From NCBI GenBank assembly GCA_964544345.1, contig CAZJBT010000002.1:1-43300 (forward strand): DNA of 43,300 nt, given 5' to 3'. This stretch comes from an uncultured Oscillospiraceae bacterium. GTDB lineage: Bacteria; Bacillota; Clostridia; Oscillospirales; Oscillospiraceae. Below are positions 1,262 through 40,600 of this stretch, one piece after another (the first letter of the stretch is position 1; every line of letters starts with the position of its first letter). The position numbers and the translations under genes are program-made. The notes beneath the pieces are model-generated. The model was not told where the DNA came from and made no database searches. It saw nothing but the letters and a program-made list of their open reading frames with translations.

Positions 1262-1302
1262 TGCGCAGATCGTTGCACATGCCGCGAAAAGCTGGTATAA
1301 TA

Positions 1303-1311
1303 CAAACAGTT
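1303..1311 (+). promoter_or_regulatory. Extended -10 promoter element TGgTATAAT
   Basis: TGGTATAAT lies about 75 nt upstream of the 1387 start. The same nonamer recurs at 3402 and 30398. Confidence 0.45.
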
Positions 1312-1386
1312 ACCGTGCTTATTATTTGCGCTGGAATGAAGTCCGGCGGCAATTGGCGCCGCGGCGCCGGAAAGGACGTGCTCTCA

Positions 1387-3375
1387 ATGGAACACCGCTA
1401 TTCGCATTTGCTCTCTCCCATCCGCGTCGGCAGCGTTTGGCTGCGCAACCGCATCTTCGGCACCTGCTGTCTGCCGCATTTCCTGCAGGGGCCGGAGACG
1501 TTCCCGTCCGAGTCTGTCATCGCCTTCGTCGAGGGGATCGCACGCGCCGGCGCTGCGCTCGTCACGATCCCCGACCGCTTCAACAACACCCGAAACATTC
1601 CGCTTGAGGACGTCTGCCGCGGCCCGTGCTGGGATCCGGCCGACCCGAGCGTCGACAATTATCTCGCGCAGATGATCGAGGCCGTCCACTTTCAGGGCGC
1701 GCGCATTTCGGTGCAGCTATCAAAATTCGCCTCGTTTCCGCCGGACGCGGGCGTGTACGACCACATCGACGACGGGAAGCACGCCATGATGCTCGATCTT
1801 GCCGAGGCCGACGAGTCCGCGCCGCCCAGCGGCCCGCCGCCGCGCCCGGTTCACGCGCTGACTGAGCCGGAGATGCAGGCCATCATCGACGAGGCAGTCG
1901 CGCGCTGCTCGTACTACAAGAGCGTCGGCTTTGACGGCGTCTGCCTGCACTATGCCTACAATTACAATCTGATCGGCAAATTCCTGTCGGCCAGTGCGAA
2001 CCAGCGCACGGATGGATACGGCGGCTCGATCGAAAACCGTGCGAAATTCCCGCTGCGCCTGGCTCGTGCGGTGCGCGATGCCGTCGGAGACGATCTGCTC
2101 ATCGAGCTGCAGATCTCCGGCGACTGCATGAGCGAAGACGAGCTGGTTCGCTTCGCCAAGCTCTGCGAGGGCACGGCCGACCTGCTCCAGATCCGCATCG
2201 AGGACATGGACGCTTCGCATATGACGGCGTACAACTACGACGGTGTGAGCGTCCCGCCGGCGGCGCATTATGCGGAGCTTATCAAGCGCTCCGGCGCTGC
2301 GATCGCAGTCGCGCCGAACGGCGGCTTCCACGACCCGGATGGGAACGAGCGGCTCATCGCCGAGGGTCGAACCGATGCGATCGCCATGGCGCGCCCGCTG
2401 ATCGCCGACCCGCAGTATCTTGACAAGCTCGTGGACGAGCGCCCGGGCGACATCACGCCGTGCCTGCACTGCAACCGCTGCCACACCCATGTCAAGGGGC
2501 AGTTTTTGTGTGCATGCGCAGTCAACCCCTATGTCGGCATCGCGCACCGCGCCGCCCGCATGGTACCGAAGCCGGGCGCACCGCAGCATGTCGCCGTCGT
2601 CGGCGGCGGCCCGGCGGGCATGCGCGCGGCACTGCTGTGCGCCGACCGCGGCCATACGGTCACACTCTTTGAGCGCGAGAGCACGCTCGGCGGCCAGCTC
2701 CGCCACGCGGACTACCCGCAGTTCAAATGGGCTGTGCGCCGGTATAAGGACTATCTCATCCGACAGGTGACGGAGAATCCGGCTGTCACGGTCTGCCTGA
2801 ACACGGACGCGACGCCGGAATCGGTGGAGGCAATGGGCTTTGACGCGGTCATCACCGCGCTCGGCGCCAAGCCAAAGCTGCCGCCCGTCCCCGGCGTGGA
2901 CACCGCAGGGGTCTGGACGCCGATCGGCGTCTACGGCCATGAGGCCGAGCTGGGACGGCGCGTCGTGGTCGTCGGCGGGTCGGAGACGGGAACGGAGACG
3001 GCGCTCTACCTTGCCGAGTGCGGCCATGAGGTCACCGTTGTCACGCGTCAAAACGTGCTTGCGCCCGAGGCGTGGTGCGTCCATGCCTACGCGCTGCTCC
3101 ACCGCCGCTGTAAGGCGTGCAAAAACCTTACGCCGGTCTTTCGCGCCGAGACGCTCGCGCTCGCGCCCGGCCGCGTCACCATCCGTACGCCGGAGGGCGA
3201 GCGGACGATAGCGTGCGATTCCATTGTCGCCTGCGGCGGCGTAGAGGGTCTGACGGACGAGGCCGCGGCCTTTTCCGGCGCAGCGCGCCGCGTCATCCAT
3301 ATCGGCGACAGCCTCATGCCGGGGAACATCCGCTCGACGTCGCGCATGGCGCTCGCCGCAGCGGCAAAGCTGTAA
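1387..3375 (+). CDS. 2,4-dienoyl-CoA-reductase / Old-Yellow-Enzyme-like flavoprotein (FMN barrel + 4Fe-4S + FAD/NAD domains), divergent paralogue 1
   Basis: Contains RTDGYGGSIENR in the barrel, the CLHCNRCH...C cysteine cluster, and Rossmann motifs VVGGGPAGM and VVGGSETG. The start is set at ATG 1387 (GGAAAGGA RBS) because the family-typical N-terminus HLLSPIRVG..RNRI begins there. Confidence 0.85.
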   Translation: MEHRYSHLLSPIRVGSVWLRNRIFGTCCLPHFLQGPETFPSESVIAFVEGIARAGAALVTIPDRFNNTRNIPLEDVCRGPCWDPADPSVDNYLAQMIEAVHFQGARISVQLSKFASFPPDAGVYDHIDDGKHAMMLDLAEADESAPPSGPPPRPVHALTEPEMQAIIDEAVARCSYYKSVGFDGVCLHYAYNYNLIGKFLSASANQRTDGYGGSIENRAKFPLRLARAVRDAVGDDLLIELQISGDCMSEDELVRFAKLCEGTADLLQIRIEDMDASHMTAYNYDGVSVPPAAHYAELIKRSGAAIAVAPNGGFHDPDGNERLIAEGRTDAIAMARPLIADPQYLDKLVDERPGDITPCLHCNRCHTHVKGQFLCACAVNPYVGIAHRAARMVPKPGAPQHVAVVGGGPAGMRAALLCADRGHTVTLFERESTLGGQLRHADYPQFKWAVRRYKDYLIRQVTENPAVTVCLNTDATPESVEAMGFDAVITALGAKPKLPPVPGVDTAGVWTPIGVYGHEAELGRRVVVVGGSETGTETALYLAECGHEVTVVTRQNVLAPEAWCVHAYALLHRRCKACKNLTPVFRAETLALAPGRVTIRTPEGERTIACDSIVACGGVEGLTDEAAAFSGAARRVIHIGDSLMPGNIRSTSRMALAAAAKL

Positions 3376-3402
3376 TTCTACTTTTCTCCGAACCGGATCC
3401 GT

Positions 3403-3527
3403 GGTATAATAGCTACGTCGGCGCATGTCGGCGCATTGCGCCGACGCGCTAAGAATTAAAAATCCCGGCCATGCGCGCAGAGCGCGCATATGGCCGATAT
3501 CCAATGGCCTTCGGTCATGGGATATCG
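3403..3527. repeat. Mosaic intergenic hairpin element, copy A
   Basis: The half-site ggtataatagcta is followed by hairpin 3421-3449 (gcgcatgtcggcgc att gcgccgacgcgc), the linker aagaattaaaaatcc, hairpin 3466-3496 (cggccatgcgcgc...gcgcatatggccg) and an imperfect hairpin at 3496-3526. About 75 bp is near-identical to 31602-31676. Confidence 0.8.
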
Positions 3528-3570
3528 CGCAAAGAAAGATACCAGGTTTTCGGAGGAGGAGCCATAAGCC

Positions 3571-4875
3571 ATGACGCCAGACGAATTGAAGGAGCTTTAC
3601 CGCTCTAAGTTTATCTCGCTCGAGCAGGCGCTGGACACGGTGCGCTCCGGCGACGTCATCGCCACGGGCAGCTACGGCAACGAGCCGGTCACGCTGCTGC
3701 GCAATCTGCACAAGGTCGCCGCGCGCGGGGTGGATGACCTGACGGTCTGGATGGGCATTCCCGCCGAGGAATACCCGTTCGTCTCGGACGACAGCCTGAC
3801 CGGCATCCATATTTTGAGCACATTTTACGGCCCGGCGCTGCGCAAGCACCACGCATCCGGACGCATCTCGTTTGTGCCGAACCATCTGCACGCGGTCTCC
3901 GGCGTCATCCAGAACTGCCGCAAGCCGAACGTGTTCTTTGCGGCCGTCACGCCGATGGATCAGTACGGCTGCGTCTGCATGTCGATGAGCCAGCAGATGG
4001 AGCTGGAGATGCTCGACCTGTGCGACACCGTGATCCTGGAGGTCAACGACAAGCTCCCGCGCACGCTCGGCACCATCCGTGTGCCGGTCGAGAAGGTCGA
4101 CTATTTCATCCGCTCCGACGCGGAGATCTCCCACGCTCCGCTCGAGGAGCCGGACGAGGTGACGGTGCGCATCGCGGAGAATGTTGCCGCGCTTATCGCA
4201 GACGGCGATACGATCCAGCTCGGCATCGGCACGCTGCCCGACGCTGTGGCGGAAAAGCTGACCGACCGCCGCGACCTGGGCATCTACACCGAAATGATCG
4301 GCACCTCGATGGGCAAGCTGATGTGGTGCGGCGCGGTCAACAACTCGCGCAAGCGCTTCTATCAGGGCCGCACGATCGGCGCCTTCGCCTGGGGCAGTCA
4401 GGATCTGTACAACTTCCTCGACGGCAATCCGATGGTCGAGCTGCTCCCGGCCAACTATGTCAACAATCCGTTTAATATCATGAAAAACGACAATATGGTG
4501 TCGGTCAATACGGCGCTGCAGATCGACCTGACGGGTCAGGTCTGCTCGGAGTTCATCGGCGGCCGGCAGTATTCCGGCACCGGCGGCGCGACGGACTTTG
4601 CCTACGGCGCATACCATGCGAAGGGCGGAAAGGGGATCATCGCCATGCGCTCGACGGCCAAGGGCGGCACGGTGTCGCGGATCGTGCCGTATCTCGCGCG
4701 CGGCGCAGTCGTGTCGATCCAGCGCAATATCGTCGACTATATCGTGACCGAGTATGGCGTCGCGCATATCCGTGACGGATCCATCCGCCAGCGGGTCGAG
4801 GGTCTGATCTCTATTGCACACCCGGATTTCCGCGGCGAGCTGCGTGCCGCCGCCCGGGAAAACGAGATCTGGTAA
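3571..4875 (+). CDS. Acetyl-CoA hydrolase/transferase family protein (family-I CoA-transferase, 4-hydroxybutyrate/butyryl-CoA:acetate CoA-transferase-like)
   Basis: Length is about 430 aa. It has a TEMIG block with a candidate catalytic Glu, a GTGGATDF (GxGGxxD) motif and the C-terminal block IVTEYGVA.IRD. A GGAGGAGGA RBS lies upstream. Confidence 0.85.
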   Translation: MTPDELKELYRSKFISLEQALDTVRSGDVIATGSYGNEPVTLLRNLHKVAARGVDDLTVWMGIPAEEYPFVSDDSLTGIHILSTFYGPALRKHHASGRISFVPNHLHAVSGVIQNCRKPNVFFAAVTPMDQYGCVCMSMSQQMELEMLDLCDTVILEVNDKLPRTLGTIRVPVEKVDYFIRSDAEISHAPLEEPDEVTVRIAENVAALIADGDTIQLGIGTLPDAVAEKLTDRRDLGIYTEMIGTSMGKLMWCGAVNNSRKRFYQGRTIGAFAWGSQDLYNFLDGNPMVELLPANYVNNPFNIMKNDNMVSVNTALQIDLTGQVCSEFIGGRQYSGTGGATDFAYGAYHAKGGKGIIAMRSTAKGGTVSRIVPYLARGAVVSIQRNIVDYIVTEYGVAHIRDGSIRQRVEGLISIAHPDFRGELRAAARENEIW

Positions 4876-4940
4876 CACAGGCGCTGCTGAGCCTTGCGGA
4901 CGGAGCAGGCGGCGGAACAGAGAGAAAGAGGTGCGAGCCA

Positions 4941-5378
4941 ATGGCGGATGAGCTGCGGGAGGTTGAATTTGACAATCTGAAGGATCCGTATTGTCATATG
5001 ATGCGGCTGCTGTTCACCCGTTGGAAGCCATTCCTCCTGCGGGCGATCTACTATGACGAGGTCAGCTCGTTTTCCGACTTTGCCAAGCGGTTGCCGATCA
5101 CACAGAAGGTGCTTTCGCAGAATCTGCGCGCGTTGGAGGGCGATGGCCTGATCAGCCGCACGGTGCTGCCCGAGATCCCGCCAAAGGTCGAATACCGCCT
5201 GACGGACAGGGGACGCTCCCTGATGCCGCTGCTCGATATGGTCTACGACTGGGGCTGGCACGATATGCAGGAGAAGGGGTTGCCGATCGATAGCCTGGGC
5301 GAAATGTGGCACGGCTACCGCGAGCGGGATCCGGATCGCATGCAAGCGCCGTATAAAAAGAAAAAATGCGGATACTGA
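4941..5378 (+). CDS. HxlR-family winged-helix transcriptional regulator
   Basis: Typical HxlR core: W.P..LR......F..F......I....LS..L..LE.DGLI.R......PP.VEY.LT..G..L. Confidence 0.85.
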   Translation: MADELREVEFDNLKDPYCHMMRLLFTRWKPFLLRAIYYDEVSSFSDFAKRLPITQKVLSQNLRALEGDGLISRTVLPEIPPKVEYRLTDRGRSLMPLLDMVYDWGWHDMQEKGLPIDSLGEMWHGYRERDPDRMQAPYKKKKCGY

Positions 5379-5385
5379 TTCGCGG

Positions 5386-5419
5386 AAAGGCCGCCTCATG
5401 CAAATGAGGCGGCCTTTTG
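5386..5419 (+). terminator. Intrinsic terminator after the CoA-transferase/HxlR pair
   Basis: aaaggccgcctcat / atgaggcggccttt stem followed by TTTT. Confidence 0.8.
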
Positions 5420-5477
5420 ATCTGTGATCCGGGAGAAAACAGGTTACTTTGAGGAAATAGCCTTACTTTATAGTATA

Positions 5478-5507
5478 TTGTTTACAAAATCGGTGGATTG
5501 TTATATT
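5478..5507 (+). promoter_or_regulatory. Candidate sigma-A promoter (TTGTTT-18-TGtTATATT) in an AT-rich island
   Basis: Extended -10 TGTTATATT at 5499-5507 and a -35-like TTGTTT/TTTACA at 5478-5486. It sits about 235 nt upstream of the 5744 start. Confidence 0.4.
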
Positions 5508-5743
5508 CTAAAGATGTCAAAGCACACAAGATGTACCTGTGTTACATAACTGTGTCTTGGTTTTGCGGTGTACTGCTTGCGGTTGGGAAGGTCTGCCGGC
5601 CGATCCCTTCCGCCGCGGCCAATGCCCGAAAGGCCGCTGTTTGCCGTTGCTTCTCCGAATGAAACAACGCAATGATATGCCCCGGGCGTTTTTTGCGCGG
5701 CGTTTGGCCTTGCAAACGCGCTCGGTATAGAAGGAGGAAAAAC

Positions 5744-7246
5744 ATGAAGGAATTGAACTATGATATCGTCGTGCTCGGCGGCGGCGGCGCGGGGCTTGTC
5801 GCGGCGGCGCGCGTCCGGGAGCTGACCGGCAAGCGTGTGCTGGTGCTGGAAAAGGCCAAAACGACCGGCGGCGGTATGCAGTTCGCGCGCACAATGCGCG
5901 TGTTCGGCAGCCGCTGGCAAAAAGAGCGCGGGCTGGAGGACAAAACCGCCGAATTCATGCGCGGCGTGATGGATCTGACGCTCTGGCGCGTCGACCCGGC
6001 GCTTGCGCGCGCGGCCATCGAGGGCACAGGACAGTTTTTCGATTGGCTGTGCGCCGCCGAGCCGGGCGTCGGCGACCGGTTCGAGGTGGGCTGCTACATC
6101 TTCGACATGCCGGACGGCCAGAAAGGCCCGGCGCTGGAGGGCACCGGCCCGGGCACGGGCGCAGGCCGCCTCATTATGGACGTGATGAAGAGAAAATGCG
6201 AAGAGCTTGGCGTTGATCTTTTGACCGAAACGCCGTTTTACGACGTCGAGCTTTCCGACGGCCGTCTGGCGGCGGTGCTGGCGAAGCGGGACGGCGAGGA
6301 GCTGCGCATCCATTGCCGCCAGCTCGTCATTGCCTCGGGAAGCTGGGTCTGCAATCCGGAGCTGGTAAAGCGGCTCATGCCGCGCTTCGCGGACGCGGAG
6401 CTGCGCCCGAGCGCGCATACGAACCCGGCCTACACCGGCGACGGACTGGCCATTTCGCAGAAGCTCGGCGCGCCGCTCGACGAGGCGGGCTGCTGCATCC
6501 GCCTGATGGGGCCGATGCTCGAGAGCAAGAGCCAGGTGCTGAACGCCGCCTGCGGGTCGGAGTTTGCCATCGGCGTGAATTTGCTTGGCCGCCGCTTCAC
6601 GTCGGAGCCGATGGTGCCGCGCATGGACTTTTTCGATACGGGTCATGTGCTCGCCGACCAGCCCAAGACCCGCACGTTCTGGGTCATCGATCGCGCCGGC
6701 CTGCGCGCCGCCGTGGAGAAGGCGCGGAGCCTGCCCCCCGCGGGCGTCGGCCCGATGCCGCCCGTTCGCTATCCGGACTCCTGGGAGGAGATCGACCGCG
6801 AGATCGACGCCGCCATCGACGGCGAGAACGCCTTCCGCGCCGACACGCCTGCAGAACTGGCGCGCCAGATGGGCGTGGACGAGGTGCGCTTCGTCAAAAC
6901 GGTCGCCGATTACAATGCATTCTGCAGCACCGGCATGGACTGGGATGGCTATAAGGACAGGTCGGCTCTCGTTCCGATGAGCGGCCCGTACTACGCGGTG
7001 CGCGGCTGGCTCGCCACCGACGGCGCGTTCGGCGGCATCCGCGTCAACGAGAAGATGCAGGCGCTGGACGCGGCCGGTGCGCCGATCCCCGGCGTCTGGG
7101 CGGCTGGCGATATCACCGGCTCGCGCCACATCGTGGCCGCGGGCGTAAAGCGCCAGATTCTCAATGATATGTCGTGGGCGTTCTCGAGTGGCTTTCTCGC
7201 GGCGGAGCGCATCGCGGAGACGCTCGCTGCGGAAAACGGCCGGTGA
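5744..7246 (+). CDS. Soluble FAD-dependent oxidoreductase, fumarate-reductase/3-ketosteroid-dehydrogenase (FAD_binding_2) family
   Basis: N-terminal dinucleotide fold DIVVLGGGGAGLVAA...VLEK...GG and C-terminal IPGVWAAGD block. A strong GAAGGAGG RBS precedes ATG 5744. The 5672 extension is basic junk. Confidence 0.85.
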   Translation: MKELNYDIVVLGGGGAGLVAAARVRELTGKRVLVLEKAKTTGGGMQFARTMRVFGSRWQKERGLEDKTAEFMRGVMDLTLWRVDPALARAAIEGTGQFFDWLCAAEPGVGDRFEVGCYIFDMPDGQKGPALEGTGPGTGAGRLIMDVMKRKCEELGVDLLTETPFYDVELSDGRLAAVLAKRDGEELRIHCRQLVIASGSWVCNPELVKRLMPRFADAELRPSAHTNPAYTGDGLAISQKLGAPLDEAGCCIRLMGPMLESKSQVLNAACGSEFAIGVNLLGRRFTSEPMVPRMDFFDTGHVLADQPKTRTFWVIDRAGLRAAVEKARSLPPAGVGPMPPVRYPDSWEEIDREIDAAIDGENAFRADTPAELARQMGVDEVRFVKTVADYNAFCSTGMDWDGYKDRSALVPMSGPYYAVRGWLATDGAFGGIRVNEKMQALDAAGAPIPGVWAAGDITGSRHIVAAGVKRQILNDMSWAFSSGFLAAERIAETLAAENGR

Positions 7247-7300
7247 GCATTTGGCGGACGCCGTCCGCCGTGCCGCCCGGAGGGAAAAGGAGAGCTTTTT

Positions 7301-8995
7301 ATGTTTTACATCAAACCGTCTTGTTCGGGGTGCCATACCTGCGAGCTGGCCTGCCCGATGGGCGCGATCGCCTACGATGGGCCGCAGTACCAGATCGACC
7401 CGGATCGATGCGTCCAGTGCGGGCTGTGCGAAACGCTCTGCCCGACCTGCTCGATCGTGAGCGATGAGGAAAACCCGGCTGCCCCGCACGAGCGCATCGT
7501 CAAAACATGCGACCTGGTCGTCTGCGGCGGCGGCACGGGGCTGATCGCGGCCATCCGCGCGGCGCAGCTTGGCCTGAAGGTCGTTCTGCTGGAAAAAGCG
7601 AAGCGCTGCGGCGGCAACACCGATCTCGCGCACGGCTTTTTCCCGATCTATTCCAAGCTGCACGAGGAGGCGGGCGCCGAGGACGTCCGCGAGGAGGCCG
7701 TCTCGGTTCTCTCCGCGCGCACGGACGGCGTGATCGGCGAGGACATCCTGCGCACCGCGGTCTACGGCTGCTCGGAATTTTTTGATTGGCTGCTCGAATT
7801 CCCGGAGACGAGAAAGCGGTTCACCATTGAGCTGTTTGGCGAAAAGCGTCAGCAAGGCCCGATCTATGGCCCGGCCGTCGTCGGGTTTCCGAAGCGCATT
7901 GAGAACGCGCGCAGTCTCGATCCGTCCATTGGCCCCGGCTGGGCCGGCACGTTTATCAAAAACACCATGCTGCAGGCCATCCCCAGCCAGAAGCTGGATG
8001 TGGAGATCCTGCTCGAGCACGAGGCGAAGCACCTTTTGACCGACGAGACCGGCCGCGTCTGCGGCGTCGTCTCGCTCGACCCGGGCGGCGAGACGGAGGT
8101 GCGCGCCCGCGCGGTCGTGCTGGCCACCGGCGGCTTCGGCAGCTCGGATGGGAAGCTCCAGCGCTACGGCGGCTTTTTCGATGTGGAGCGCCCTGTGACG
8201 CGCTTCTCCGTTCCGTCGGACACCGGCGACGCGATCGACATGCTCCGGGAGCTGGGGGTGGAGCCGAACGAGGAGCGGATGTTCATTTCGCTCTTTGGCC
8301 CGGCGCATCACCCGTATTCGTACAGTCTCTACCGCGCGCTCGAGCATCCGTCCAACCTGTCGGTCAATCTGAACGGCGAGCGCTGGCAGAACGAGATGGG
8401 CGGCCTGGGCGAGGGGCGGTTCCACATTGCAGGCAGCCCGAGGGAGGTCGCCTGGGGCATCTTCACGCAGGACAACCTTGACGAGATCTTCCGTGAATTT
8501 CTGTCCGATCCGACGCTGTCGGACGAATATGACTGCTATGAGCGCTATCAGGAGGATCTCGACCGCGAGGCCGCCTACAAAAAGCCGCCGGTCTGCAAGG
8601 CCGACACGCTGTCTGAGCTGGCGAAGAAGATCGGCGCGCCGCCTGCGGCGCTCGAACACACCGTGGCCGAATATAACCGCTTCTGCCGCGAGGGGCGCGA
8701 CGCACAGTTCGGCAAGGACGCGGCCTACCTTCGCCCGCGCGCGCACGGCCCGTACTACGCCATCTACGGCCAGCGCTTCTCCGAGTGTGCCATGGGCGGC
8801 CTGATGGTCAACGACCGCTGCGAGGTACTCGATTCCGCCGGCGCGCCGATCCCGGGCCTGTACGGCGCGGGCGACGCGACGAGCGCGATGCATCGCCGCA
8901 GCGCTCTGGCGCCGGTGTCCGAGCTGACGTGGGCGGTGGCGTCGAGCTTCCGCTGCGCCGAGAATGCCGCGCGGGCGATGGAGGCGGAAGGATGA
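7301..8995 (+). CDS. 2x[4Fe-4S] ferredoxin domain fused to a FAD_binding_2 flavoprotein reductase
   Basis: The N-terminus holds two CxxCxxCxxxCP motifs (CSGCHTCELACP, CVQCGLCETLCP). These are followed by DLVVCGGGTGLIAA...LEKA..CGG and the C-terminal IPGLYGAGD block. Confidence 0.85.
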   Translation: MFYIKPSCSGCHTCELACPMGAIAYDGPQYQIDPDRCVQCGLCETLCPTCSIVSDEENPAAPHERIVKTCDLVVCGGGTGLIAAIRAAQLGLKVVLLEKAKRCGGNTDLAHGFFPIYSKLHEEAGAEDVREEAVSVLSARTDGVIGEDILRTAVYGCSEFFDWLLEFPETRKRFTIELFGEKRQQGPIYGPAVVGFPKRIENARSLDPSIGPGWAGTFIKNTMLQAIPSQKLDVEILLEHEAKHLLTDETGRVCGVVSLDPGGETEVRARAVVLATGGFGSSDGKLQRYGGFFDVERPVTRFSVPSDTGDAIDMLRELGVEPNEERMFISLFGPAHHPYSYSLYRALEHPSNLSVNLNGERWQNEMGGLGEGRFHIAGSPREVAWGIFTQDNLDEIFREFLSDPTLSDEYDCYERYQEDLDREAAYKKPPVCKADTLSELAKKIGAPPAALEHTVAEYNRFCREGRDAQFGKDAAYLRPRAHGPYYAIYGQRFSECAMGGLMVNDRCEVLDSAGAPIPGLYGAGDATSAMHRRSALAPVSELTWAVASSFRCAENAARAMEAEG

Positions 8996-10320
8996 AGCGG
9001 CGGCTCGACCTTTCGCCGCATAAGACGCCGATGGCGGAGCAAAGCCCCGCGCAGCGCGTCCGCAATCAGGAGGAGGTCGCGCTCGGCTATACCGAGGCGG
9101 AGGCGCGCGCCGAGGCTGAGCGCTGTCTGGACTGCCCTGACCGCTGGTGTGTCGATGGCTGCCCGGCACACAACAGGATCCCTGAATTCATCGCGAAGCT
9201 CCGCGAGGGCGACTTCGCTGCGGCCTATGCGCTGCTGCGCCGCACCAACCAGATGCCGGGTGTGACCAGCCGCGTGTGCGCGTGCGAAGAGCAGTGCGAA
9301 CGCCGCTGCACGCGCGCCATCCGCTCCGAGCAGGTCGCCATCGGCGCGCTGGAGCGCTTTGTGGCCGACTGGGCGCATGCGCATGGGCTTGACCGCGAGC
9401 TGCCGCCGGTTCTGCACCTGCGCGCGGTCGCCGTCGTCGGCGCAGGCCCTGCGGGCATGACCTGTGCCTGTTCGTTGGCCAAGGCCGGCTTTCAGGTCAC
9501 GATCTTTGAACAGGGAGAGCTGCTCGGCGGCATTCCCGCCTATGTGATCCCGCCGTTCGTGCTGCCGGGCGAGGTGGTCAGCGACGTGGTCGGCCAGCTC
9601 GAGCAGCTCGGCGTGGAGCTTCGCACTGGCTGCACGCTGGGCAAGAACCTGGCGCTCGGCTCGCTGCGCGAGGATTTCGACGCTGTTTTTCTCGCCGTGG
9701 GCGCCGCCGCGTCGCGTGCGCTGAACGTCCCGGGCGAGACGCTGCCGGGCGTGCATCAGGCGATGCACTACCTGATCGACGAGGATCGCACGCGCGCCCG
9801 GCGCGTCGCCGTCATCGGCGGGGGAAATACCGCGCTCGACGCCGCGCGCACGGCCGTGCGCATGGGCGCGGAGCGCGTGACGGTCGTCTACCGCCGCACC
9901 CGCGGCGATATGCCCGCCGGCCGCCGGCAGCGCGCGCTTGCAGAGGACGAGGGCGTCCGGTTTGAATTTCTCGCGTCTCCATGCCGCATCACGGCCGCGG
10001 ACGGCGCGCTGTGCGTGGAGCTGATGCGGATGCGGCCAGACCGGCCCGAATATCCCGGCGGCCGCTGGATGGTCGCGCCGGCCGGGCAGACGTTCCCGCT
10101 CACAGCGGATCTCGTCATTGCGGCGACCGGCTTCACCAGCGCGCCGGTGGCCGGCGTTGCACTGCGTGAAAACGGCTGCATCGCAGTCGACGAGCACTAC
10201 CGGACGAGCCTGCCCGGCGTCTGGGCGGGCGGCGACGCCGTGACCGGCATGCGAACCGTCGCCGCCGCCGTCAACGCGGGCCGCGCGGCCGCGGTGGAGA
10301 TCTTCTCCGCCCTGTCCTGA
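8992..10320 (+). CDS. GltD / NfnB / SudA-like NAD(P)H-dependent iron-sulfur flavoprotein (glutamate synthase small-subunit family)
   Basis: N-terminal Cys clusters (CLDCPDRWCVDGCP, RVCACEEQCERRC) and two Rossmann motifs (VVGAGPAGM, VIGGGNTALD). The ATG overlaps the stop of the upstream gene (ATGA). Confidence 0.85.
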   Translation: MKRRLDLSPHKTPMAEQSPAQRVRNQEEVALGYTEAEARAEAERCLDCPDRWCVDGCPAHNRIPEFIAKLREGDFAAAYALLRRTNQMPGVTSRVCACEEQCERRCTRAIRSEQVAIGALERFVADWAHAHGLDRELPPVLHLRAVAVVGAGPAGMTCACSLAKAGFQVTIFEQGELLGGIPAYVIPPFVLPGEVVSDVVGQLEQLGVELRTGCTLGKNLALGSLREDFDAVFLAVGAAASRALNVPGETLPGVHQAMHYLIDEDRTRARRVAVIGGGNTALDAARTAVRMGAERVTVVYRRTRGDMPAGRRQRALAEDEGVRFEFLASPCRITAADGALCVELMRMRPDRPEYPGGRWMVAPAGQTFPLTADLVIAATGFTSAPVAGVALRENGCIAVDEHYRTSLPGVWAGGDAVTGMRTVAAAVNAGRAAAVEIFSALS

Positions 10321-10354
10321 TCGTCCCGCGGGGCGAGCCTCTAATCCCGACTGT

Positions 10355-10385
10355 CCGCCGCCCTTCCTGAGCGGCGGGCTTTTTG
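10355..10385 (+). terminator. Intrinsic terminator
   Basis: ccgccgc / gcggcgg stem followed by gcTTTTT. Confidence 0.6.
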
Positions 10386-10397
10386 CCGCCTGCGAGG

Positions 10398-10426
10398 TTG
10401 ACAGACCGCGCGGCACATGAGATAAT
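10398..10426 (+). promoter_or_regulatory. Sigma-A type promoter TTGACA-17-GATAAT (with an upstream TG)
   Basis: Consensus -35 with exact 17-nt spacing and a TGaGATAAT -10, about 50 nt upstream of ATG 10476. Confidence 0.6.
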
Positions 10427-10475: not shown

Positions 10476-12416
10476 ATGTCAACGTCGTATCCCAATCTGC
10501 TCGCGCCGTACCGTATCGGCGGGAAGCTGTATAAAAACCGCATCCTGATGGGGCCGTTCACGCCGCCCGGCGCGGGTGTGGGCTGCCCGAACGCGATGGG
10601 GATGGCCTGGTTCGAGACGCGCGCGCGCGGCGGCGCGGCGCAGATCACGGTCGGCGAGACGTCGGTCGACCCCGTGGTCGGCGACCGCAAGCAGGGCGGT
10701 ACGGTCAACATCCACTCGGCCAATATGGACGACCGGATCGCCAACCGCGAGCTGACGCTGGCCATCGCCCGGCACGGTGCGCTTGCCGCCATCGAGCTGG
10801 CGCACATCGGGCTGTGGAACGACCCGTGCTGCATCGCCGGCGGCGCGGATCCGATCGGCCCGTCCGAGTGGGTGCGGCCCGACGGCGTCCATGTGCGCGA
10901 GATGACGGAGGAGCAGATCGACGCGGTCTGCGAGCAATACGCGGCCGCGGCGGAGCGGGCGCGCGATCTCGGCTTTGACGTCGCGGTGATCCATGGCGGC
11001 CACGGCTGGCTCCAGGCGCAGTTCCTCTCGCCGCTGTTCAACCGCCGCGTCGACCGCTTCGGCGGCAGTCTGGAAAACCGCGCGCGCCTTTCGCGGATGA
11101 TCCTGGATCGCATTCGCGCGCGTGTGGGCGATTCGATCCTGCTCGAGTACCGCCTCTCCGGCGACGAGCTGGCTGCAGGCGGCTTCCATATCGACGAAAT
11201 GGTCGAATTCTCGCGCATGATCGAAGACCGGGTCGACCTGCTCCACGTCTCCGCCGGGCAGTATCAGGATCCCGTGCGCACGCGCACGTTCCCGTCGATC
11301 TACGAGCCGCACGGCTGCAACCGCGGCCTGTCGCGCCGCATCAAGGACGCGGTCAAAACGCCGGTCGCCGTCGTTGGCGCGATCACCGATCCAGAGACGG
11401 CAGAGGACATCCTATCTTCCGGAGACGCCGACTTCGTCGTGATGGTCAAACAGCTCATCGCAGACCCGGACTACCCGCGCAAGCTGCTCGAGGGACGGCG
11501 CGATGAGATCCGCCCCTGCATCCGCTGCTACGCGTGCATGACGGGCTTCCCGGAGCTGCCGCCGAACCTGCTCTGCTCGGTCAACCCGATGGCGACGCGC
11601 GAGCATCTCGCACCCGGCGTCCGTCCGCGCGGCGGGCGGCGCCGTGTGCTGGTCGTCGGCGGCGGCATTGCGGGCATGCAGGCCGCAGCGACCGCGGCGC
11701 TCTGCGGTCACGATGTGACGATAGCGGAGCGTTCGGATCGTCTCGGCGGCACGCTGAATTTCACTGACTTCGACCCGGTCAAGGCCGACGTGCGCCGGCT
11801 GAAAAATCAGCTCGCCGACATGGTGGAAAAGCGCGGCGTCCGCGTCCTGCTGAACACGGACGTGACGCCGGAGCTTGTGCGCGAGCTTGCGCCCGACCGG
11901 CTCATCGCCGCAGTCGGCGCACAGCCGATCGTTCCGCCGATCCCGGGCGCCGCGCGCGCCGTGCCGGCCGTGGAGGTCTACGGCCACGCGGAGGAATACG
12001 CGGGCAAGCGCGTCGTCATCATCGGCGGCGGCATGGTGGGCTGCGAGACGGGCGTGTACCTGGCAGACGCCGGCGCGTCCGTCGTCGTGCTCGAGATGGG
12101 CGACACCATCGCGGCCGAGTGCGTCGGCATGCCGCGCATCGCGCTGCTCGACCGGCTGGACGCCGTGTTGACGTATCACACCGGCTGCGCCTGCACCGCG
12201 GTGACGGAGGGCGGCGTCACAGCCCGCTGCGCGGACGGCGAGCGGCTGTTTGCCGCCGACCGCGTTGTGCTCGCAGCGGGTCTGTGTCCGAACCGCGAGC
12301 CGGCCGATGCGCTGACCGCCGCAGTCCTCGGCGCCGTCGCCGTCGGCGACTGCGTGAAGCCCGGCAGGATCCGGGAGGCGATCTCCGGCGCCGTGTTCGC
12401 CGCGCTGGATCTGTAA
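10476..12416 (+). CDS. 2,4-dienoyl-CoA-reductase / OYE-like flavoprotein (canonical paralogue 2)
   Basis: N-terminus LLAPYRIGG.LYKNRI, active-site block VIHGGHGWLQAQFLSP, RVDRFGGSLENR, CIRCYAC...C cluster, VVGGGIAGM and IIGGGMVGCE Rossmann motifs. A GGGAGGG RBS lies upstream. Confidence 0.88.
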   Translation: MSTSYPNLLAPYRIGGKLYKNRILMGPFTPPGAGVGCPNAMGMAWFETRARGGAAQITVGETSVDPVVGDRKQGGTVNIHSANMDDRIANRELTLAIARHGALAAIELAHIGLWNDPCCIAGGADPIGPSEWVRPDGVHVREMTEEQIDAVCEQYAAAAERARDLGFDVAVIHGGHGWLQAQFLSPLFNRRVDRFGGSLENRARLSRMILDRIRARVGDSILLEYRLSGDELAAGGFHIDEMVEFSRMIEDRVDLLHVSAGQYQDPVRTRTFPSIYEPHGCNRGLSRRIKDAVKTPVAVVGAITDPETAEDILSSGDADFVVMVKQLIADPDYPRKLLEGRRDEIRPCIRCYACMTGFPELPPNLLCSVNPMATREHLAPGVRPRGGRRRVLVVGGGIAGMQAAATAALCGHDVTIAERSDRLGGTLNFTDFDPVKADVRRLKNQLADMVEKRGVRVLLNTDVTPELVRELAPDRLIAAVGAQPIVPPIPGAARAVPAVEVYGHAEEYAGKRVVIIGGGMVGCETGVYLADAGASVVVLEMGDTIAAECVGMPRIALLDRLDAVLTYHTGCACTAVTEGGVTARCADGERLFAADRVVLAAGLCPNREPADALTAAVLGAVAVGDCVKPGRIREAISGAVFAALDL

Positions 12417-14807: not shown

Positions 14808-16430
14808 TTATTTCGCGCGGGCGCAGGCGCGGCCGGCCTCGCGGCCAAGCGTCATGGCCATGCCGATGGACACGCCGGCGATCGGCGTGGTATAGGCCGG
14901 GCCGAAGCGGCGGCCGCAGCAGTTGCCAGTCGCGTATAGACCGGGGATCGGCTCATAGTCAAGCCCGAGCACGTTCTGCGTCTCGTCCGTGACGAAGCCG
15001 CCGACCGTGACGAGCATAAAGCCGAGGTCGCCCGTCTGCTCGCTCGCCTGCAGGAACAATCGGCCGGAGAGCGGGCGGAGCAGCTTTGCGTCCTTGCCAA
15101 AATCGTCGTCGCGCCCGGCGCGGCAGACCTCGTTGTACCGGTGGATCGAGCGGACGGCGTTCTCTGCTGCCTCGCCGGTCAGGCCGGCGTTTGCGACCAG
15201 CTCCTCCGGCGTCTCGCCGGAATAGATGGTCGGCGCGACATAGCCGAACGGGAACGCCTTGCGCATCGGTTCCATCGAGTCTGCGCCGCCGCGCGGATTT
15301 TCTGCGGCGTTGTCCATGATGGCGCGCAGGGCGCGCACGCTCTCGGGGTTGTGCTCGTCGAAGCCGCCGTGCGCCGGGACAGCCCACTGCAGATCGTCCA
15401 GGATATGTTCGTCAAAGATATTGTAGCGTGCGCCGAGCGGCATGGCGTTCGCGCCGAAGCCGGAGATCTCGGGGCCGCCGAAGGTCTCGTTGCAAAAGCG
15501 CTTCCCGTTTCGGTCGAGCCAGAGTACGCCGAAGGTCGTGAAGCCGGGGATCGTGACATAGTTGCCGCCCATGACGGGCAGCGGACGCGGCTCGAGCCGT
15601 CCGCCGGCCCAGACGCCGATCTGATGGCCGAGACCCTGCCGTCCGCCCTTGCGCGGGTATTCCTGCCCTTCGGGCAGCAGGTCGGTAATGTCGGTGACAA
15701 GCTCCATCATCATCTCGCGGTTGCCGGAGAAGTCGCCTGCGGCCAGGATCACGCCGCGCTTTGCGCGGTAGGCGCGGCAGACGCCCTCGCCGTTGCGGGT
15801 GATGATGCCGGCGACGCGCTTGCCGTCCATCACGGGCTGCACTGCCGTCTCGCCGAAACGCAGGAGCGCGCCCTTTTGCTCGGCCTTCTCGTGGTTGGCC
15901 TTTACCACGTCGGGCAGCGTTGGGAAGCCCGGCCAGCCGCGCGGGTCGGGGAACTGCGCCGTGCCGTTCCAGAAGTGGTAGCCGTTGTAGTCGGTTCCCG
16001 GGTGCGCCTTGAATTCGCGCGCGCCCTCGGGCCAGTAGGCGACGTGGACGTCGCGCAGGCCGTCAAGTCCGAACATGTCGGTGAACCAGTCGAACGCCGC
16101 GCCGGAATTCTGCGCGAACTGCATGACGAGCGAGGCGTTGACGCGCCCGACGGCGCGGCGCAGCAGCTCGTTGTACAGGTCGATGGGATCGACCCTCGGC
16201 ACGCCGCGGCTGGCGAGAAAGGCCGAATTGATATGGCCGATGTCGCGGCCGAAGCTGTCGAAGCGCTCGCGCTTCATCATCTCGATGCCGACGGCCGCCG
16301 CGCCCTCCTCGACCGCCGCGCGCAGCGCGGCGGTGCCGGCGTAGCCGAGGCCGACGACAACGACGTCCGTCTCGTGTGTCTCAGCGATCTGTTCCGGCGC
16401 GATCGGCGCCGGACGCTCCTTCCAACTCAT
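14808..16430 (-). CDS. FAD-dependent oxidoreductase (FAD_binding_2-like), paralogue of 40622-42259
   Basis: DVVVVGLGYAGTAALRAA dinucleotide fold and C-terminal IPGLYATGNCCGRRFG...PIAGVSIG. A GAAGGAGG RBS precedes ATG 16430. Long collinear identity to the 40622 gene is visible by eye. Confidence 0.82.
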   Translation of the reverse strand: MSWKERPAPIAPEQIAETHETDVVVVGLGYAGTAALRAAVEEGAAAVGIEMMKRERFDSFGRDIGHINSAFLASRGVPRVDPIDLYNELLRRAVGRVNASLVMQFAQNSGAAFDWFTDMFGLDGLRDVHVAYWPEGAREFKAHPGTDYNGYHFWNGTAQFPDPRGWPGFPTLPDVVKANHEKAEQKGALLRFGETAVQPVMDGKRVAGIITRNGEGVCRAYRAKRGVILAAGDFSGNREMMMELVTDITDLLPEGQEYPRKGGRQGLGHQIGVWAGGRLEPRPLPVMGGNYVTIPGFTTFGVLWLDRNGKRFCNETFGGPEISGFGANAMPLGARYNIFDEHILDDLQWAVPAHGGFDEHNPESVRALRAIMDNAAENPRGGADSMEPMRKAFPFGYVAPTIYSGETPEELVANAGLTGEAAENAVRSIHRYNEVCRAGRDDDFGKDAKLLRPLSGRLFLQASEQTGDLGFMLVTVGGFVTDETQNVLGLDYEPIPGLYATGNCCGRRFGPAYTTPIAGVSIGMAMTLGREAGRACARAK

Positions 16431-16513
16431 AAAAGCGCCTCCTTCGGTGCTGTTTTTCCTTTGCGGCATGACCCTTTTCTCCAAGCGCCTGCGCGCTGAG
16501 CGCACAGATGCGC

Positions 16514-16541
16514 GTATCACAGCCGCTTGCAGCTATGATAG
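16514..16541 (-). promoter_or_regulatory. Imperfect dyad gtatcacagccg-N4-cagctatgatag overlapping a minus-strand TGcTATCAT extended -10
   Basis: Related to the perfect dyads at 30466-30494, 31572-31598 and 31700-31726. It lies about 85-110 nt upstream of the 16430 start. Confidence 0.45.
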
Positions 16542-16619: not shown

Positions 16620-18614
16620 TCAGATCTCCATGGCGTTCCAGTATCCTGTGGAGACGGCGTCGCGGATCTTGTGGGGCTTGATGCAATCGCCGGCCAGCGC
16701 GACATAGGGCGCGCAGTTCGTGAACGCGTAAGCCTCCGCCGAGCGCGCGGTCATGCCGGACGAGAGCACGACGGTGTCGCAGGCGATGGTCTTGACCTCG
16801 CCCGTCTGGGTGTCGCGCACCTTCACGCCGTCCGGCAGGATCTCGATGCAGTCGCAGCCGTTATGCAGCGCGATGCCGCGCTCGGAAAACCAGTCGAGGA
16901 AGGTCGGCACGGGGTTGTAGAGCGCCGACGGGCCGTGGGTGAAGTTCTCGTGGAAGCAGATGGTCTCGCGCCGGCCGACGATGGACACGGTGTGGCCGGT
17001 GTTGTTCAGGTGCAGCGCGACCTCGCAGGCGGTCAGGCCGCTGCCGAGCATCAGCACATGGCCGCGCAGACGCTCCGGCTGCTCGTACGCCTCGAGCACG
17101 GTCAGTACGTTGCCGCCGTTTGCGCCGGGGATGTTCGGCCTGCGGGTCACGGCGCCGATGCAGACCAGCACGGCGTAGGGCGCGAGCTGCGCCATCAGCT
17201 CAGGCGTCGCGCGCGTATTGAGCCGCACCTCGATGTTCGGATGCTCCGTGACGCGGCGGATCATGTTGTTCTTGTAGCGGCGGATGTCCGTCTTGATGGT
17301 GTCGGTGTCGGAAAACACGAGCTGGCCGCCGAGACGATCCTTTTCCTCGAACAAAATGACCGAGTGACCGCGCTCGGCCGCGGTGTGCGCGGCCTTTAGT
17401 CCCGCGATGCCGCCGCCGACGACGCAGACCGTCCGCGCGACCGGTGCTTTCTTCAGCGGGTAGGAATTCTCATAGGTCTTGAAGGTCGCGTGCGGGTTGA
17501 CCGAGCACGGGCCGATCACGTCGTAGCACGCGTGGCAGCGCAGGCAGTTGTCGATCAGCTCCTCGCGGCCCTCGTGCAGCTTGCGCGGGTAGTATGGATC
17601 CGCGATCTCGAGCTGGCGGGACATGCAGACGAAGTCCGCGTCGCCTGAGGCGATGATATCCGCAGCCGTGTCCGGATTTGCGCAGGAGTTGACGATGACG
17701 AGCGGCGTGACGATGCCGGCGTCCTTGATTCTCCGGCAGAAGCCCCGGTTCGGAGCCTCCGGGAAGGTGGCCGGCGAGGTGACGTGGTTGTTCGACTTGC
17801 AGTCGGTGTGGCGGCCGGCCGTGCAGTGAAACAGGTCGACGACGTGCGCCTTCTCGAGCAGCTTGAAGAATTCGATCGTCTCGTCGATCGTGATGCCGCC
17901 GGGCGTGAACTCGTCGACGCTGGTGCGGTACTCGATGATAAAGTCGGATCCGACGGCCTCGCGGACAGCCTGCATGACCTCGATCGGGTAGCGGCTGCGG
18001 TTTTCCACGCTGCCGCCGTAGCGGTCGGTGCGGAAGTTGAAGTCCGGCGCGCGGAACTGGTCGAGCAGCTTGCCGTGACCGGCGTGGATGACGCAGCCGT
18101 CAACGCCGTAGTTCTTCGCGCGCACGGCGCACTTGACGTAGTCGGCCTTGACGCGCTCGAGGTCGGCCTCGGTCATCTCAATGACCTCGGAGCCGTTGTC
18201 GTATTTCTTCGCGGACGGGCCGAGCGCGCTCGGCGGGCCGAACTGCGGGCCGACGCCGGTCGGGCCGCCCTCGCACACGAACTGGACGAAGGCCAGGCAG
18301 TTGTAGCGGTGGACGGTGTTGACGTAATTGCGCACGGAGTTGCCGAGATCCATCGGCTCCGGGTCGGGGTAAAACTTCACGCGACCCATGCCGCCCATAT
18401 AGCCGCCGTCTACGTTGACGACGGCGTCGCCGCCGCCGATGACGCGCGCCGCGCCGCCGCGGGCGAGCGCGCCGTAGTAGTCGACGTTGGCCTGGATGAT
18501 GCCTGCGCCGGGGTTGTCCTCGTTGCAGCCGAGCGGGCCGACGAGAATGCGGTTTTTGAAGGTGTGCGAGCCGATGGTGTACGGCTGGAACAGCGGTTCG
18601 TATTTTTTGTTCAA
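16620..18614 (-). CDS. 2,4-dienoyl-CoA-reductase / OYE-like flavoprotein (canonical paralogue 3)
   Basis: YEPLFQPYTIGSHTFKNRI N-terminus, VIHAGHGKLLDQF, RTDRYGGSVENR, CLRCHAC...C, VVGGGIAGL, LGSGLTACE. The only in-frame start upstream of the conserved N-terminus is TTG 18614 (GAAAGG RBS), so the start is uncertain. Confidence 0.85.
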   Translation of the reverse strand: MNKKYEPLFQPYTIGSHTFKNRILVGPLGCNEDNPGAGIIQANVDYYGALARGGAARVIGGGDAVVNVDGGYMGGMGRVKFYPDPEPMDLGNSVRNYVNTVHRYNCLAFVQFVCEGGPTGVGPQFGPPSALGPSAKKYDNGSEVIEMTEADLERVKADYVKCAVRAKNYGVDGCVIHAGHGKLLDQFRAPDFNFRTDRYGGSVENRSRYPIEVMQAVREAVGSDFIIEYRTSVDEFTPGGITIDETIEFFKLLEKAHVVDLFHCTAGRHTDCKSNNHVTSPATFPEAPNRGFCRRIKDAGIVTPLVIVNSCANPDTAADIIASGDADFVCMSRQLEIADPYYPRKLHEGREELIDNCLRCHACYDVIGPCSVNPHATFKTYENSYPLKKAPVARTVCVVGGGIAGLKAAHTAAERGHSVILFEEKDRLGGQLVFSDTDTIKTDIRRYKNNMIRRVTEHPNIEVRLNTRATPELMAQLAPYAVLVCIGAVTRRPNIPGANGGNVLTVLEAYEQPERLRGHVLMLGSGLTACEVALHLNNTGHTVSIVGRRETICFHENFTHGPSALYNPVPTFLDWFSERGIALHNGCDCIEILPDGVKVRDTQTGEVKTIACDTVVLSSGMTARSAEAYAFTNCAPYVALAGDCIKPHKIRDAVSTGYWNAMEI

Positions 18615-18637
18615 AGGAATCAGGCCTTTCTGTTTGG

Positions 18638-28458: not shown

Positions 28459-28483
28459 AACGTTTTTCCTTTCTGGATACAGA

Positions 28484-28518
28484 ATAAAATGCGGCGCGGG
28501 AAAGCCGGGCTTTCCCGC
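28484..28518 (-). terminator. Intercistronic terminator-like hairpin between a binding-protein gene and the flavoprotein gene
   Basis: gcgggaaagc / gctttcccgc stem followed on the minus strand by ATTTTATT. Only about 25 nt remain before the next start, so downstream expression needs read-through. Confidence 0.5.
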
Positions 28519-28553
28519 ACCGGTGAAAAAGCTCAATAGATCAACTCAATGAA

Positions 28554-40546: not shown

Positions 40547-40564
40547 AATCGCATGGAACAGCCG

Positions 40565-40600
40565 GCTGGAAGGGTGCAAGCCCCCTTCCAGCCATTTTTT
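40565..40600 (+). terminator. Terminator-like hairpin plus T6 inside the 5' leader of the flavoprotein gene (candidate attenuator)
   Basis: gctggaaggg tgcaagcc cccttccagc followed by caTTTTTT, ending 21 nt before the start codon. No upstream plus-strand gene needs a terminator here. Confidence 0.5.

Follow-up and report, generated by a model that had tools for sequence, protein, structure and literature searches.

A conserved gene pair of uncultured Oscillospiraceae that probably feeds NAD(P)H electrons into a ferredoxin-fused FAD_binding_2 reductase

The genes at the locus

The DNA described here is a 43,300-nt stretch from an uncultured Oscillospiraceae bacterium, referred to at its full length as the window. 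It carries three co-directional genes on the plus strand, termed g1, g2 and g3, of which the latter two form a conserved pair. The g2 product is a flavoprotein of the FAD_binding_2 family with a ferredoxin domain at its N-terminus, and that of g3 resembles NfnB, the NADPH-binding subunit of the NfnAB enzyme. Together they are proposed to form an iron-sulfur (Fe-S) flavoenzyme. The genes are as follows:

5744..7246, plus strand: g1, 500 aa, stand-alone FAD_binding_2 flavoprotein (Pfam FAD_binding_2, E-value 7.6e-37)
7301..8995, plus strand: g2, 564 aa, ferredoxin-fused FAD_binding_2 reductase, proposed catalytic subunit
8992..10320, plus strand: g3, 442 aa, NfnB-derived GltD-like Fe-S flavoprotein, proposed NADPH-oxidising subunit
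8992..8995, plus strand: overlap of the g2 stop and the g3 start, ATGA (ggaaggATGAagc), read from the sequence

A first-pass annotation of the sequence had placed the same three genes at the same coordinates and with the same domains, in agreement with the Pfam matches and with the ATGA. All three are taken to be real genes, as the G+C content at third codon positions is 0.84-0.86 in their frames and database homologues run to the hundreds (at least 270 for g1 and at least 473 for g2). For g1 the start at 5744 is favoured over an open reading frame start at 5672, because GAAGGAGG lies immediately 5′ of the ATG and homologues of about 495-500 aa cover 99% of the protein. The spacing between g1 and g2 is 54 nt, with GGAGAG preceding the ATG of g2, and the ATGA overlap is predicted to couple the translation of g2 and g3. 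That g1 and g2 are tandem FAD_binding_2 paralogues, as had been proposed, is confirmed by an identity of 31% over the flavin domain, a figure low enough for them to be considered old paralogues. No signal-peptide-like start was seen in either protein when the N-termini were judged by eye; that of g1 runs directly into the FAD-binding motif and that of g2 into the first cluster motif, which fits with a cytoplasmic NADPH donor.

Conservation of the g2-g3 pair

A scan of genomes, limited to one genome per species, identified g2 homologues at 67 loci, with identities of 43-76%. Uncultured Oscillospiraceae account for nearly all of these; some belong to Sporobacter, Papillibacter, Lachnospirales and Spirochaetia metagenome-assembled genomes (MAGs), while a few bear Bacteroidales names and may be mis-binned. 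Sixty-three loci, most of the set being MAG contigs, possess a complete g2 C-terminus together with at least 900 nt of downstream sequence, and a GltD-like gene lies directly 3′ and on the same strand in 60 of these, at a gap of 0-205 nt save for one partial tblastn match. A metagenome scan was performed with an alignment of g2 homologues (A3) as query; where the ferredoxin-fused gene was at least 47% identical to g2 and downstream sequence was present, a GltD-like gene came next in 10 of 11 cases, the exception (L083) having an OYE-type (old yellow enzyme) flavoenzyme gene in that position. Relatives with a partner of type I (see below) keep the 4-nt overlap of g2 and g3 or have a gap of 0-27 nt.

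The association is also apparent from the side of g3. Its nearest database relatives, which are 440-452 aa long and at 46-52% identity, stand apart from those that come after them. Two of the nearest were examined (48-49% identity, 441 aa), and in each case the gene immediately 5′ is a ferredoxin-FAD_binding_2 gene that overlaps by 4 nt. Proteins of the following tier are 458-470 aa long, share 45% identity with g3 and bear the name "NADPH-dependent glutamate synthase"; they are assigned to canonical NfnAB since an NfnA-like DHODB_Fe-S_bind gene lies before theirs (e.g., L128). The synteny survey proposed in the first-pass annotation was thus strongly positive in both directions, and it supports the earlier claim of a functional link between the ferredoxin-fused reductase and g3 as an NAD(P)H entry module of the GltD/NfnB type. 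The conserved core is the g2-g3 pair, kept in about 70 related genomes, and not a triplet with g1.

The ferredoxin-fused reductase g2

The g2 protein has two predicted regions:

7301..7480, plus strand: residues 1-60, N-terminal 2x[4Fe-4S] ferredoxin domain of the clostridial type (Fer4, Fer4_7, Fer4_9)
7511..8902, plus strand: residues 71-534, FAD_binding_2 catalytic domain (Pfam E-value 5.7e-44)

Residues 2-50 are matched by Fer4 (E-value 2e-10) and Fer4_7 (E-value 3e-8), and the CxxCxxCxxxC motif occurs twice in full, as C8/11/14/18 and as C37/40/43/47. None of the eight cysteines varies among 17 homologues at 58-77% identity or among 18 more distant ones at 31-56%. An AlphaFold2 model of g2 (mean predicted local distance difference test score 81.8, predicted template modelling score 0.83) was used for a Foldseek search, in which the best match was the urocanate reductase UrdA (6t86) with a template modelling score of 0.81, normalised to target length, and flavocytochrome c3 (Fcc3) was matched with an E-value of about 1e-28. 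Other fold matches included 3-ketosteroid-delta4-(5alpha)-dehydrogenase, KstD and cyclohexanone dehydrogenase. None of the solved homologues found in this fold search possesses an Fe-S domain.

The g2 enzyme had previously been described as fumarate-reductase-like, and this description appears valid for the fold only. Residues His365, Arg402, His504 and Arg544 of Fcc3 align with F332, ~L369, E495 and A535 of g2, the positions being approximate as they derive from a low-identity pairwise HMMER alignment. With all four fumarate-binding or catalytic residues replaced and a score below the cut-off of the flavocytochrome c model TIGR01813, a function as fumarate reductase was ruled out, and the substrate is predicted to be something other than fumarate. 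All the curated NCBIfam models considered (flavocytochrome c, TcuA, KstD, VprA) leave both g1 and g2 far under their cut-offs. With TIGR01813 the scores are 141 bits for g1 and 138 for g2 against a cut-off of 285; the best match, the VprA vinyl phenol reductase model NF053717, gives 162 and 177 bits against 600, and the KstD and delta4-5alpha-KSTD models give 123-135 bits for the two proteins against cut-offs of 789.

The NfnB-like subunit g3

Two regions were also identified in g3:

9055..9384, plus strand: Fer4_20 domain with two sets of [4Fe-4S] ligands (Pfam E-value 1.3e-35)
9424..10281, plus strand: FAD- and NADPH-binding domain (Pfam Pyr_redox_2, E-value 1.4e-38)

The cluster ligands are C45, C48, C53 and C57 (Cx2Cx4Cx3C) for the first set and C96, E99, C102 and C106 (Cx2Ex2Cx3C) for the second. 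These seven cysteines and one glutamate are invariant or close to it across 52 partner sequences and in TmNfnB, PfNfnI-L, EcGltD and EcPreT. The nucleotide-binding motifs comprise GAGPAG (residues 150-155) for FAD, GGGNTA (276-281) for NAD(P)H and VVYRRT (298-303) for the 2′-phosphate, the YRR of the last agreeing with both NfnB and GltD. Among solved structures the best match is Thermotoga maritima NfnB (4ylf_B, E-value 5e-99), with 45% identity over the full length, and the same identity to NfnB of both T. maritima and Pyrococcus furiosus compares with just 32-34% to GltD and PreT.

The best NCBIfam model for g3, TIGR01316, scores 390.7 bits against a cut-off of 471.75, and no NfnA-like or GltB-like gene was found within the 43-kb window. 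On these two grounds g3 was rejected as a subunit of canonical NfnAB or of glutamate synthase. It is instead predicted to be an NADPH-type, NfnB-derived GltD-like subunit, the function of which would be the oxidation of NADPH.

Partner lineages and related fusions

The GltD-like partners of g2 homologues split into two lineages. Type I, which includes g3 of the window, groups with genuine NfnB and carries the YRR motif. Type II (L023-L069; e.g., L044 6372-7616) is equidistant from NfnB, GltD and PreT, and has Q-I-E-M-L-P in place of V-V-Y-R-R-T, with an acidic residue of the kind found in NADH-dependent PreT. Owing to this residue, type II partners are probably NADH-specific. When g2 homologues are placed in a neighbour-joining tree, those with a type I partner do not form a single branch but two, which suggests that the input subunit was swapped at least once while the arrangement was retained; together with the presence of two lineages at the same position, this would make the input subunit an exchangeable module. 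Pairwise distances of g2 homologues and of their partners correlate (r = 0.75), a correlation for which shared ancestry alone could account.

An exhaustive search of representatives with g2 gave 9,939 matches at E-values of 1e-3 or below and 291 at 1e-30 or below. The long proteins among the best 150 are double FAD_binding_2 fusions, FMN_bind fusions and a NuoF-type fusion, P0219. The last (925 aa) combines a NuoF-type Fe-S region, a 2x[4Fe-4S] domain and FAD_binding_2 in one chain, and its start is overlapped by a gene for a 710-aa protein with a NuoG-type N-terminus followed by Fer4_20/Pyr_redox_2 (L077 83-4982). This pair represents a second, independent joining of a GltD-like NAD(P)H module to the g2 fold, and it could form a multi-nucleotide or bifurcating reductase complex. 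By domain content, the 710-aa protein is presumably akin to the NuoG/GltD-like hybrids StnC and NsoC.

Second ferredoxin-FAD_binding_2 paralogues were observed near g2-g3 pairs in L013, L016, L026 (~3150-4990, minus strand), L051, L052, L063 and L075. They share 29-32% identity with g2 and are located no more than a few kb from the pair, but have no GltD-like gene of their own, and one GltD-like subunit may serve several reductases.

Comparison with known systems

The closest parallel to the pair is dihydropyrimidine dehydrogenase (DPD), both as the bacterial PreT/PreA enzyme and as mammalian DPD. In DPD, a GltD-like module passes hydride from NAD(P)H to FAD; electrons then travel over the two [4Fe-4S] clusters of this module and over two more in the 8Fe ferredoxin domain of the catalytic part, and so reach its flavin (PMC8097209). 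Like g2-g3, DPD thus joins a GltD-like NAD(P)H/FAD subunit to a catalytic flavoprotein with an 8Fe ferredoxin domain, with the order flavin, four clusters, flavin, and the genes are coupled, preT-preA of E. coli being translationally coupled also (L072). However, the catalytic part of DPD is a DHODH-like FMN barrel instead of FAD_binding_2, the ferredoxin domain is C-terminal in PreA and N-terminal in g2, and the gene order is reversed. Moreover, DPD acts on pyrimidines, whereas the substrate of g2 is, as far as can be told, not a pyrimidine.

With NfnAB, g2-g3 shares the input subunit, as g3 is 45% identical over its full length to NfnB of T. maritima and to NfnI-L of P. furiosus and keeps the ligands and the NADPH motif. 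The partner of NfnB is NfnA, which has FAD, a [2Fe-2S] cluster and an NAD+ site, whereas the partner of g3 is the ferredoxin-fused reductase; proteins of the g3 clade are also some 15-20 residues shorter than NfnB proteins. The Stn-type NuoF/NuoG/GltD-like modules likewise contain a GltD-like domain within a multi-cluster NAD(P)H module, and L077 couples one of these to a ferredoxin-FAD_binding_2 protein, but the window has a minimal stand-alone GltD-like subunit without NuoE, NuoF or NuoG parts.

On the side of g2, Cgr2, the cardiac glycoside reductase of Eggerthella lenta, is an FAD_binding_2-family reductase that needs one or more [4Fe-4S] clusters. Unlike g2, it is exported, has no canonical ferredoxin domain, uses the membrane cytochrome Cgr1 as its partner and lacks an NAD(P)H subunit. 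The cytoplasmic NADH:enoate reductases (Klebsiella NADH:fumarate reductase, the Vibrio acrylate reductase Ard, the Vibrio ruber cinnamate reductase Crd and UrdA) are soluble FAD_binding_2 enzymes which reduce activated C=C bonds, with NAD(H) electrons entering via an added input module (10.1101/2022.01.20.477176). Their input consists of an OYE-like NADH:flavin domain with covalent FMN in FMN_bind, or of hemes, in place of the Fe-S clusters and GltD-like subunit of g2-g3, and their substrate-binding residues differ from those of g2.

The partners given in reviews of GltD-like modules and of Nfn homologues are GltS, DPD, Nfn patterns A-D and AegA, an FAD_binding_2 protein not being among them, and the nine clades named in a phylogeny of GltD-like proteins are likewise all described without one. 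For the cytoplasmic enoate reductases of the FAD_binding_2 family, published work gives OYE and FMN_bind as inputs, and a preprint on the steroid reductase OsrABC makes no mention of ferredoxin, 4Fe-4S, fumarate reductase, KstD or glutamate synthase. No description of the g2-g3 pair was found in the open-access literature searched, nor was a PDB entry or an NCBIfam equivalog for it, the databases naming its homologues generically. The suggestion that the pair is an undescribed input architecture stands, as it is absent both from the described inputs of the family (heme c, FMN_bind, OYE) and from the described partners of GltD-like modules (GltS, DPD, Nfn, AegA). It is probably an uncharacterised pairing and a new route feeding NAD(P)H electrons into FAD_binding_2 reductases, in which known modules have been recombined in a predictable manner.

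Proposed mechanism and alternatives

It is proposed that g2 and g3 form a soluble two-subunit Fe-S flavoenzyme which would reduce an organic substrate with NADPH by way of a DPD-like wire, and we give this reading a probability of about 0.65. In this scheme, the FAD of g3 would take the electrons of NADPH and hand them singly to the two [4Fe-4S] clusters of g3. The ferredoxin domain of g2 would dock on g3 and relay the electrons to the flavin of the FAD_binding_2 domain, from which an activated C=C bond or a comparable group would receive a hydride-equivalent. The full path would be NADPH to FAD, four [4Fe-4S] clusters, FAD and C=C substrate. We infer the complex, its docking geometry and the order of carriers from the known parts, and the direction from NADPH to substrate from thermodynamics.

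A number of observations weigh against this reading. In L004-L006, which hold the closest relatives of g2 (75% identity), a GltD-like gene is missing next to the g2 homologue, from which it follows that g2-type enzymes can exist without a neighbouring one, the partner being encoded elsewhere or replaced by free ferredoxin. Distant clades of ferredoxin-fused FAD_binding_2 proteins (40% identity to g2 or less, e.g., the P0125 clade) also lack a GltD-like neighbour; these keep the eight cysteines, and OYE-type Fe-S flavoenzyme or SBP_bac_5 transport genes often adjoin them. No natural g2-g3 fusion was present among the best 150 representatives, and the trees mentioned above are neighbour-joining trees without bootstrap. 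Given the P0125 clade, the pairing was rejected as a rule for all ferredoxin-fused FAD_binding_2 proteins and the GltD coupling appears confined to one clade, at 43% identity to g2 or more. The co-occurrence of ferredoxin-fused FAD_binding_2 and gltD-like genes anticipated in the first-pass annotation was accordingly seen in that clade but not in the others.

An alternative is that g2-g3 is an electron-bifurcating enzyme, in which the FAD of the NfnB-derived g3 would bifurcate with g2 instead of NfnA as the high-potential branch. One electron would then run downhill via g2 to the substrate and the other uphill via the [4Fe-4S] clusters of g3 to free ferredoxin, with a stoichiometry of 2 NADPH + substrate + 2 Fd(ox) -> 2 NADP+ + reduced substrate + 2 Fd(red). 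The reduction of a C=C bond by NADPH yields enough energy for the reduction of ferredoxin, as in caffeyl-CoA and butyryl-CoA reductase/Etf. The grouping of g3 with genuine bifurcating NfnB, its sister group being canonical nfnAB, agrees with this possibility, as does the fact that g2 has taken the place of NfnA as neighbouring gene; the NuoG-type/GltD-like and NuoF-type content of L077 presumably recalls the Stn-type bifurcating transhydrogenase. However, an NfnA-like mediator with a [2Fe-2S] cluster is lacking, and the partners of type II, which serve the same g2 clade, are no nearer to NfnB than to PreT or GltD. Moreover, the same GltD-like module operates in GltS and DPD, neither of which bifurcates (PMC8097209). 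Bifurcation, for which the first-pass annotation had left room, is considered unlikely.

The second alternative, which is considered improbable to a similar degree, has g2 fed by free reduced ferredoxin or flavodoxin, with g3 being a separate, co-expressed ferredoxin:NADP+ oxidoreductase that balances redox pools. It would account for L004-L006 and for the whole P0125 clade, in which the GltD-like neighbour is missing, and the clusters of NfnB-type proteins do normally meet free ferredoxin (PMC6405883). Against it stand the coupling by a 4-nt overlap, the near-obligate co-occurrence in both directions and the recruitment of partners for two types of pyridine nucleotide to the same position; furthermore, proteins of the g3 clade were not found with any other partner.

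Operation in the oxidative direction, with g2 as a KstD-like desaturase or dehydrogenase feeding NADP+ via the clusters, would suit the 3-ketosteroid and cyclohexanone dehydrogenases among the relatives of g2 in fold and sequence, but it is very unlikely, as ene/ane couples lie some 300 mV above NADP+/NADPH, making the reduction of NADP+ strongly endergonic, and the organism is an anaerobe of a reductase-rich lineage. The slimmest chance is given to an incidental adjacency, with g3 as an ordinary NfnB or small glutamate synthase subunit having its partner elsewhere, to which the homologue names at NCBI and JGI ("NADPH-dependent glutamate synthase", "NAD(P)-dependent oxidoreductase") and TIGR01316 as best model would point, but which is effectively refuted by the counts of synteny and reverse synteny, besides the sub-threshold TIGR01316 score and the lack of nfnA or gltB in the window.

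Relevance of the DPD-like reading

Reductases of the FAD_binding_2 family are a major source of the conversion of diet, drug and host molecules by gut bacteria, including urocanate, cinnamates, steroids and cardiac glycosides. The known inputs to these enzymes are hemes, covalent FMN and OYE domains, to which a DPD-like g2-g3 would add a fourth route, made entirely of Fe-S clusters and drawing on the NADPH pool (or NADH in sister lineages). Enzymes of this type are common in uncultured Oscillospiraceae of human and animal guts. For their reconstitution, the GltD-like gene would have to be co-expressed and Fe-S assembly provided, as such orphan reductases would otherwise probably be inactive in substrate screens.

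The list of GltD/NfnB partners would also grow beyond GltS, DPD, Nfn and AegA, and the pair would offer a natural case of an NfnB lineage having traded NfnA for another partner, useful for asking what makes a flavin bifurcate. If bifurcation were true after all, g2-g3 would constitute an unrecognised bifurcating class, and gut Oscillospiraceae would gain reduced ferredoxin, and energy via Rnf or hydrogenase, from the NADPH-driven reduction of dietary phenolics.

g1 as accessory neighbour

The first-pass annotation had treated g1, g2 and g3 as one three-gene module, a view which did not hold. Genes like g1 (42-50% identity) lie within 6 kb of a g2 homologue in seven other loci, and L004 and L006 have a g1 orthologue (73% identity) and another FAD_binding_2 gene upstream of their g2 homologue. 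However, most g2-g3 loci are without g1, and g1 homologues also occur alone or beside genes for OYE or molybdopterin enzymes without a GltD-like gene, including those of L073-L075. An obligate three-gene module was rejected on this evidence and g1 appears to be an accessory neighbour, co-transcribed in the source organism. It would be a second, ferredoxin-less reductase which is co-expressed with the pair and probably acts on a related substrate or at a related pathway step.

It is also worth mentioning that P0122, P0199 and P0243 are single polypeptides of 921-1000 aa with two tandem FAD_binding_2 modules, and paralogue pairs like g1 and g2 may thus work together in some organisms.

Operon boundaries and regulation

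The features that flank the three genes are given below:

4941..5378, plus strand: HxlR-family regulator gene (Pfam HxlR, E-value 6e-23)
5386..5419, plus strand: intrinsic terminator 3′ of the HxlR gene, hairpin and T-run, read from the sequence
5481..5509, plus strand: candidate sigma-70-like promoter, TTTACA-17-TATTCT, weak, inferred from a consensus scan (9/12)
5510-5743: leader of about 230 nt from the candidate promoter to g1, with a weak terminator-like element at 5677-5689
10353..10384, plus strand: intrinsic terminator 3′ of g3, 9-bp GC stem and T5, from sequence and fold

The candidate promoter sits in an AT-rich stretch between the HxlR terminator and g1. With a terminator and a promoter upstream and a terminator downstream, g1-g2-g3 is predicted to be a self-contained operon of the source organism, forming one transcription unit. 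This unit is probably under the control of the HxlR regulator encoded upstream, and in 13 type I loci an HxlR orthologue (57-68% identity) precedes the g2-g3 pair at close range in divergent orientation; the regulator is probably a dedicated controller of the operon.

No Rfam family reached its gathering score anywhere in the window, the leader included. A sensitive Rfam scan of 5380-5760 gave only terminator look-alikes, with all of the weak matches falling on the hairpin of the HxlR terminator, and a riboswitch or other RNA element in the leader was rejected on that basis. The leader may contain an attenuator.

Beyond the terminator of g3, a strong, near-consensus promoter (TTGACA-17-TGnGATAAT) is located at 10398-10426. 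The gene which follows encodes an OYE-type Fe-S flavoenzyme; its longest open reading frame starts at a TTG at 10383, inside the g3 terminator, while the real start is the ATG at 10476, which is served by the promoter at 10398-10426 and by a GGGAGGG ribosome-binding site.

Genomic neighbourhood and possible substrates

The window as a whole is a reductase island, possessing five FAD_binding_2 genes and four genes for OYE-type Fe-S flavoenzymes:

FAD_binding_2 genes: 5744 (g1), 7301 (g2), 14808-16520 (minus strand), 31773-33281 and 40553-42259
OYE-type Fe-S flavoenzyme genes: 1273-3375, 10476-12416, 16620-18719 (minus strand) and 26377-28536 (minus strand)
34337-35173, plus strand: gene resembling 2,4-diacetylphloroglucinol (DAPG)/phloretin hydrolase, adjoining an SBP_bac_5 gene and esterases

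Further genes encode three binding proteins of the SBP_bac_5 family along with permeases and ATPases of the Opp type, regulators of the LysR (four), HxlR and XRE families, two esterases, an Amidohydro_2 protein and a CoA-transferase. In L077, too, P0219 is directly followed by a DAPG-hydrolase-like gene (5037-5822), and such genes hint at the catabolism of polyphenols of the phloretin or chalcone type. These neighbours, the hydrolase-like gene beside P0219 and VprA as the best, if weak, NCBIfam model together suggest a plant-phenolic-derived compound as the substrate class of g2, this being context and not proof.

Part of the region is shared with L005, the closest relative, in which the segment 2606-7644 corresponds to 1273-8995 of the window. 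Here the g2 orthologue comes straight after an OYE gene (80% identity) and a CoA-transferase gene (90% identity, apparently frameshifted), with HxlR, g1 and g3 all missing. This gene content points to a recent rearrangement of the region.

Stand-alone 5_nucleotid_C proteins of 259-313 aa, lacking the metallophosphatase domain, are encoded in the window (18638-19579, minus strand), in L127 and L129 (1459-2292), in L002 (688-1494) and in L006 (377-1156). Repeatedly, their genes are direct neighbours of genes for ferredoxin-FAD_binding_2 or OYE reductases and for transporters of the Opp type, and in L127 and L129 the gene is located immediately upstream of the g2-like/g3-like pair. These proteins are possibly substrate-binding accessories.

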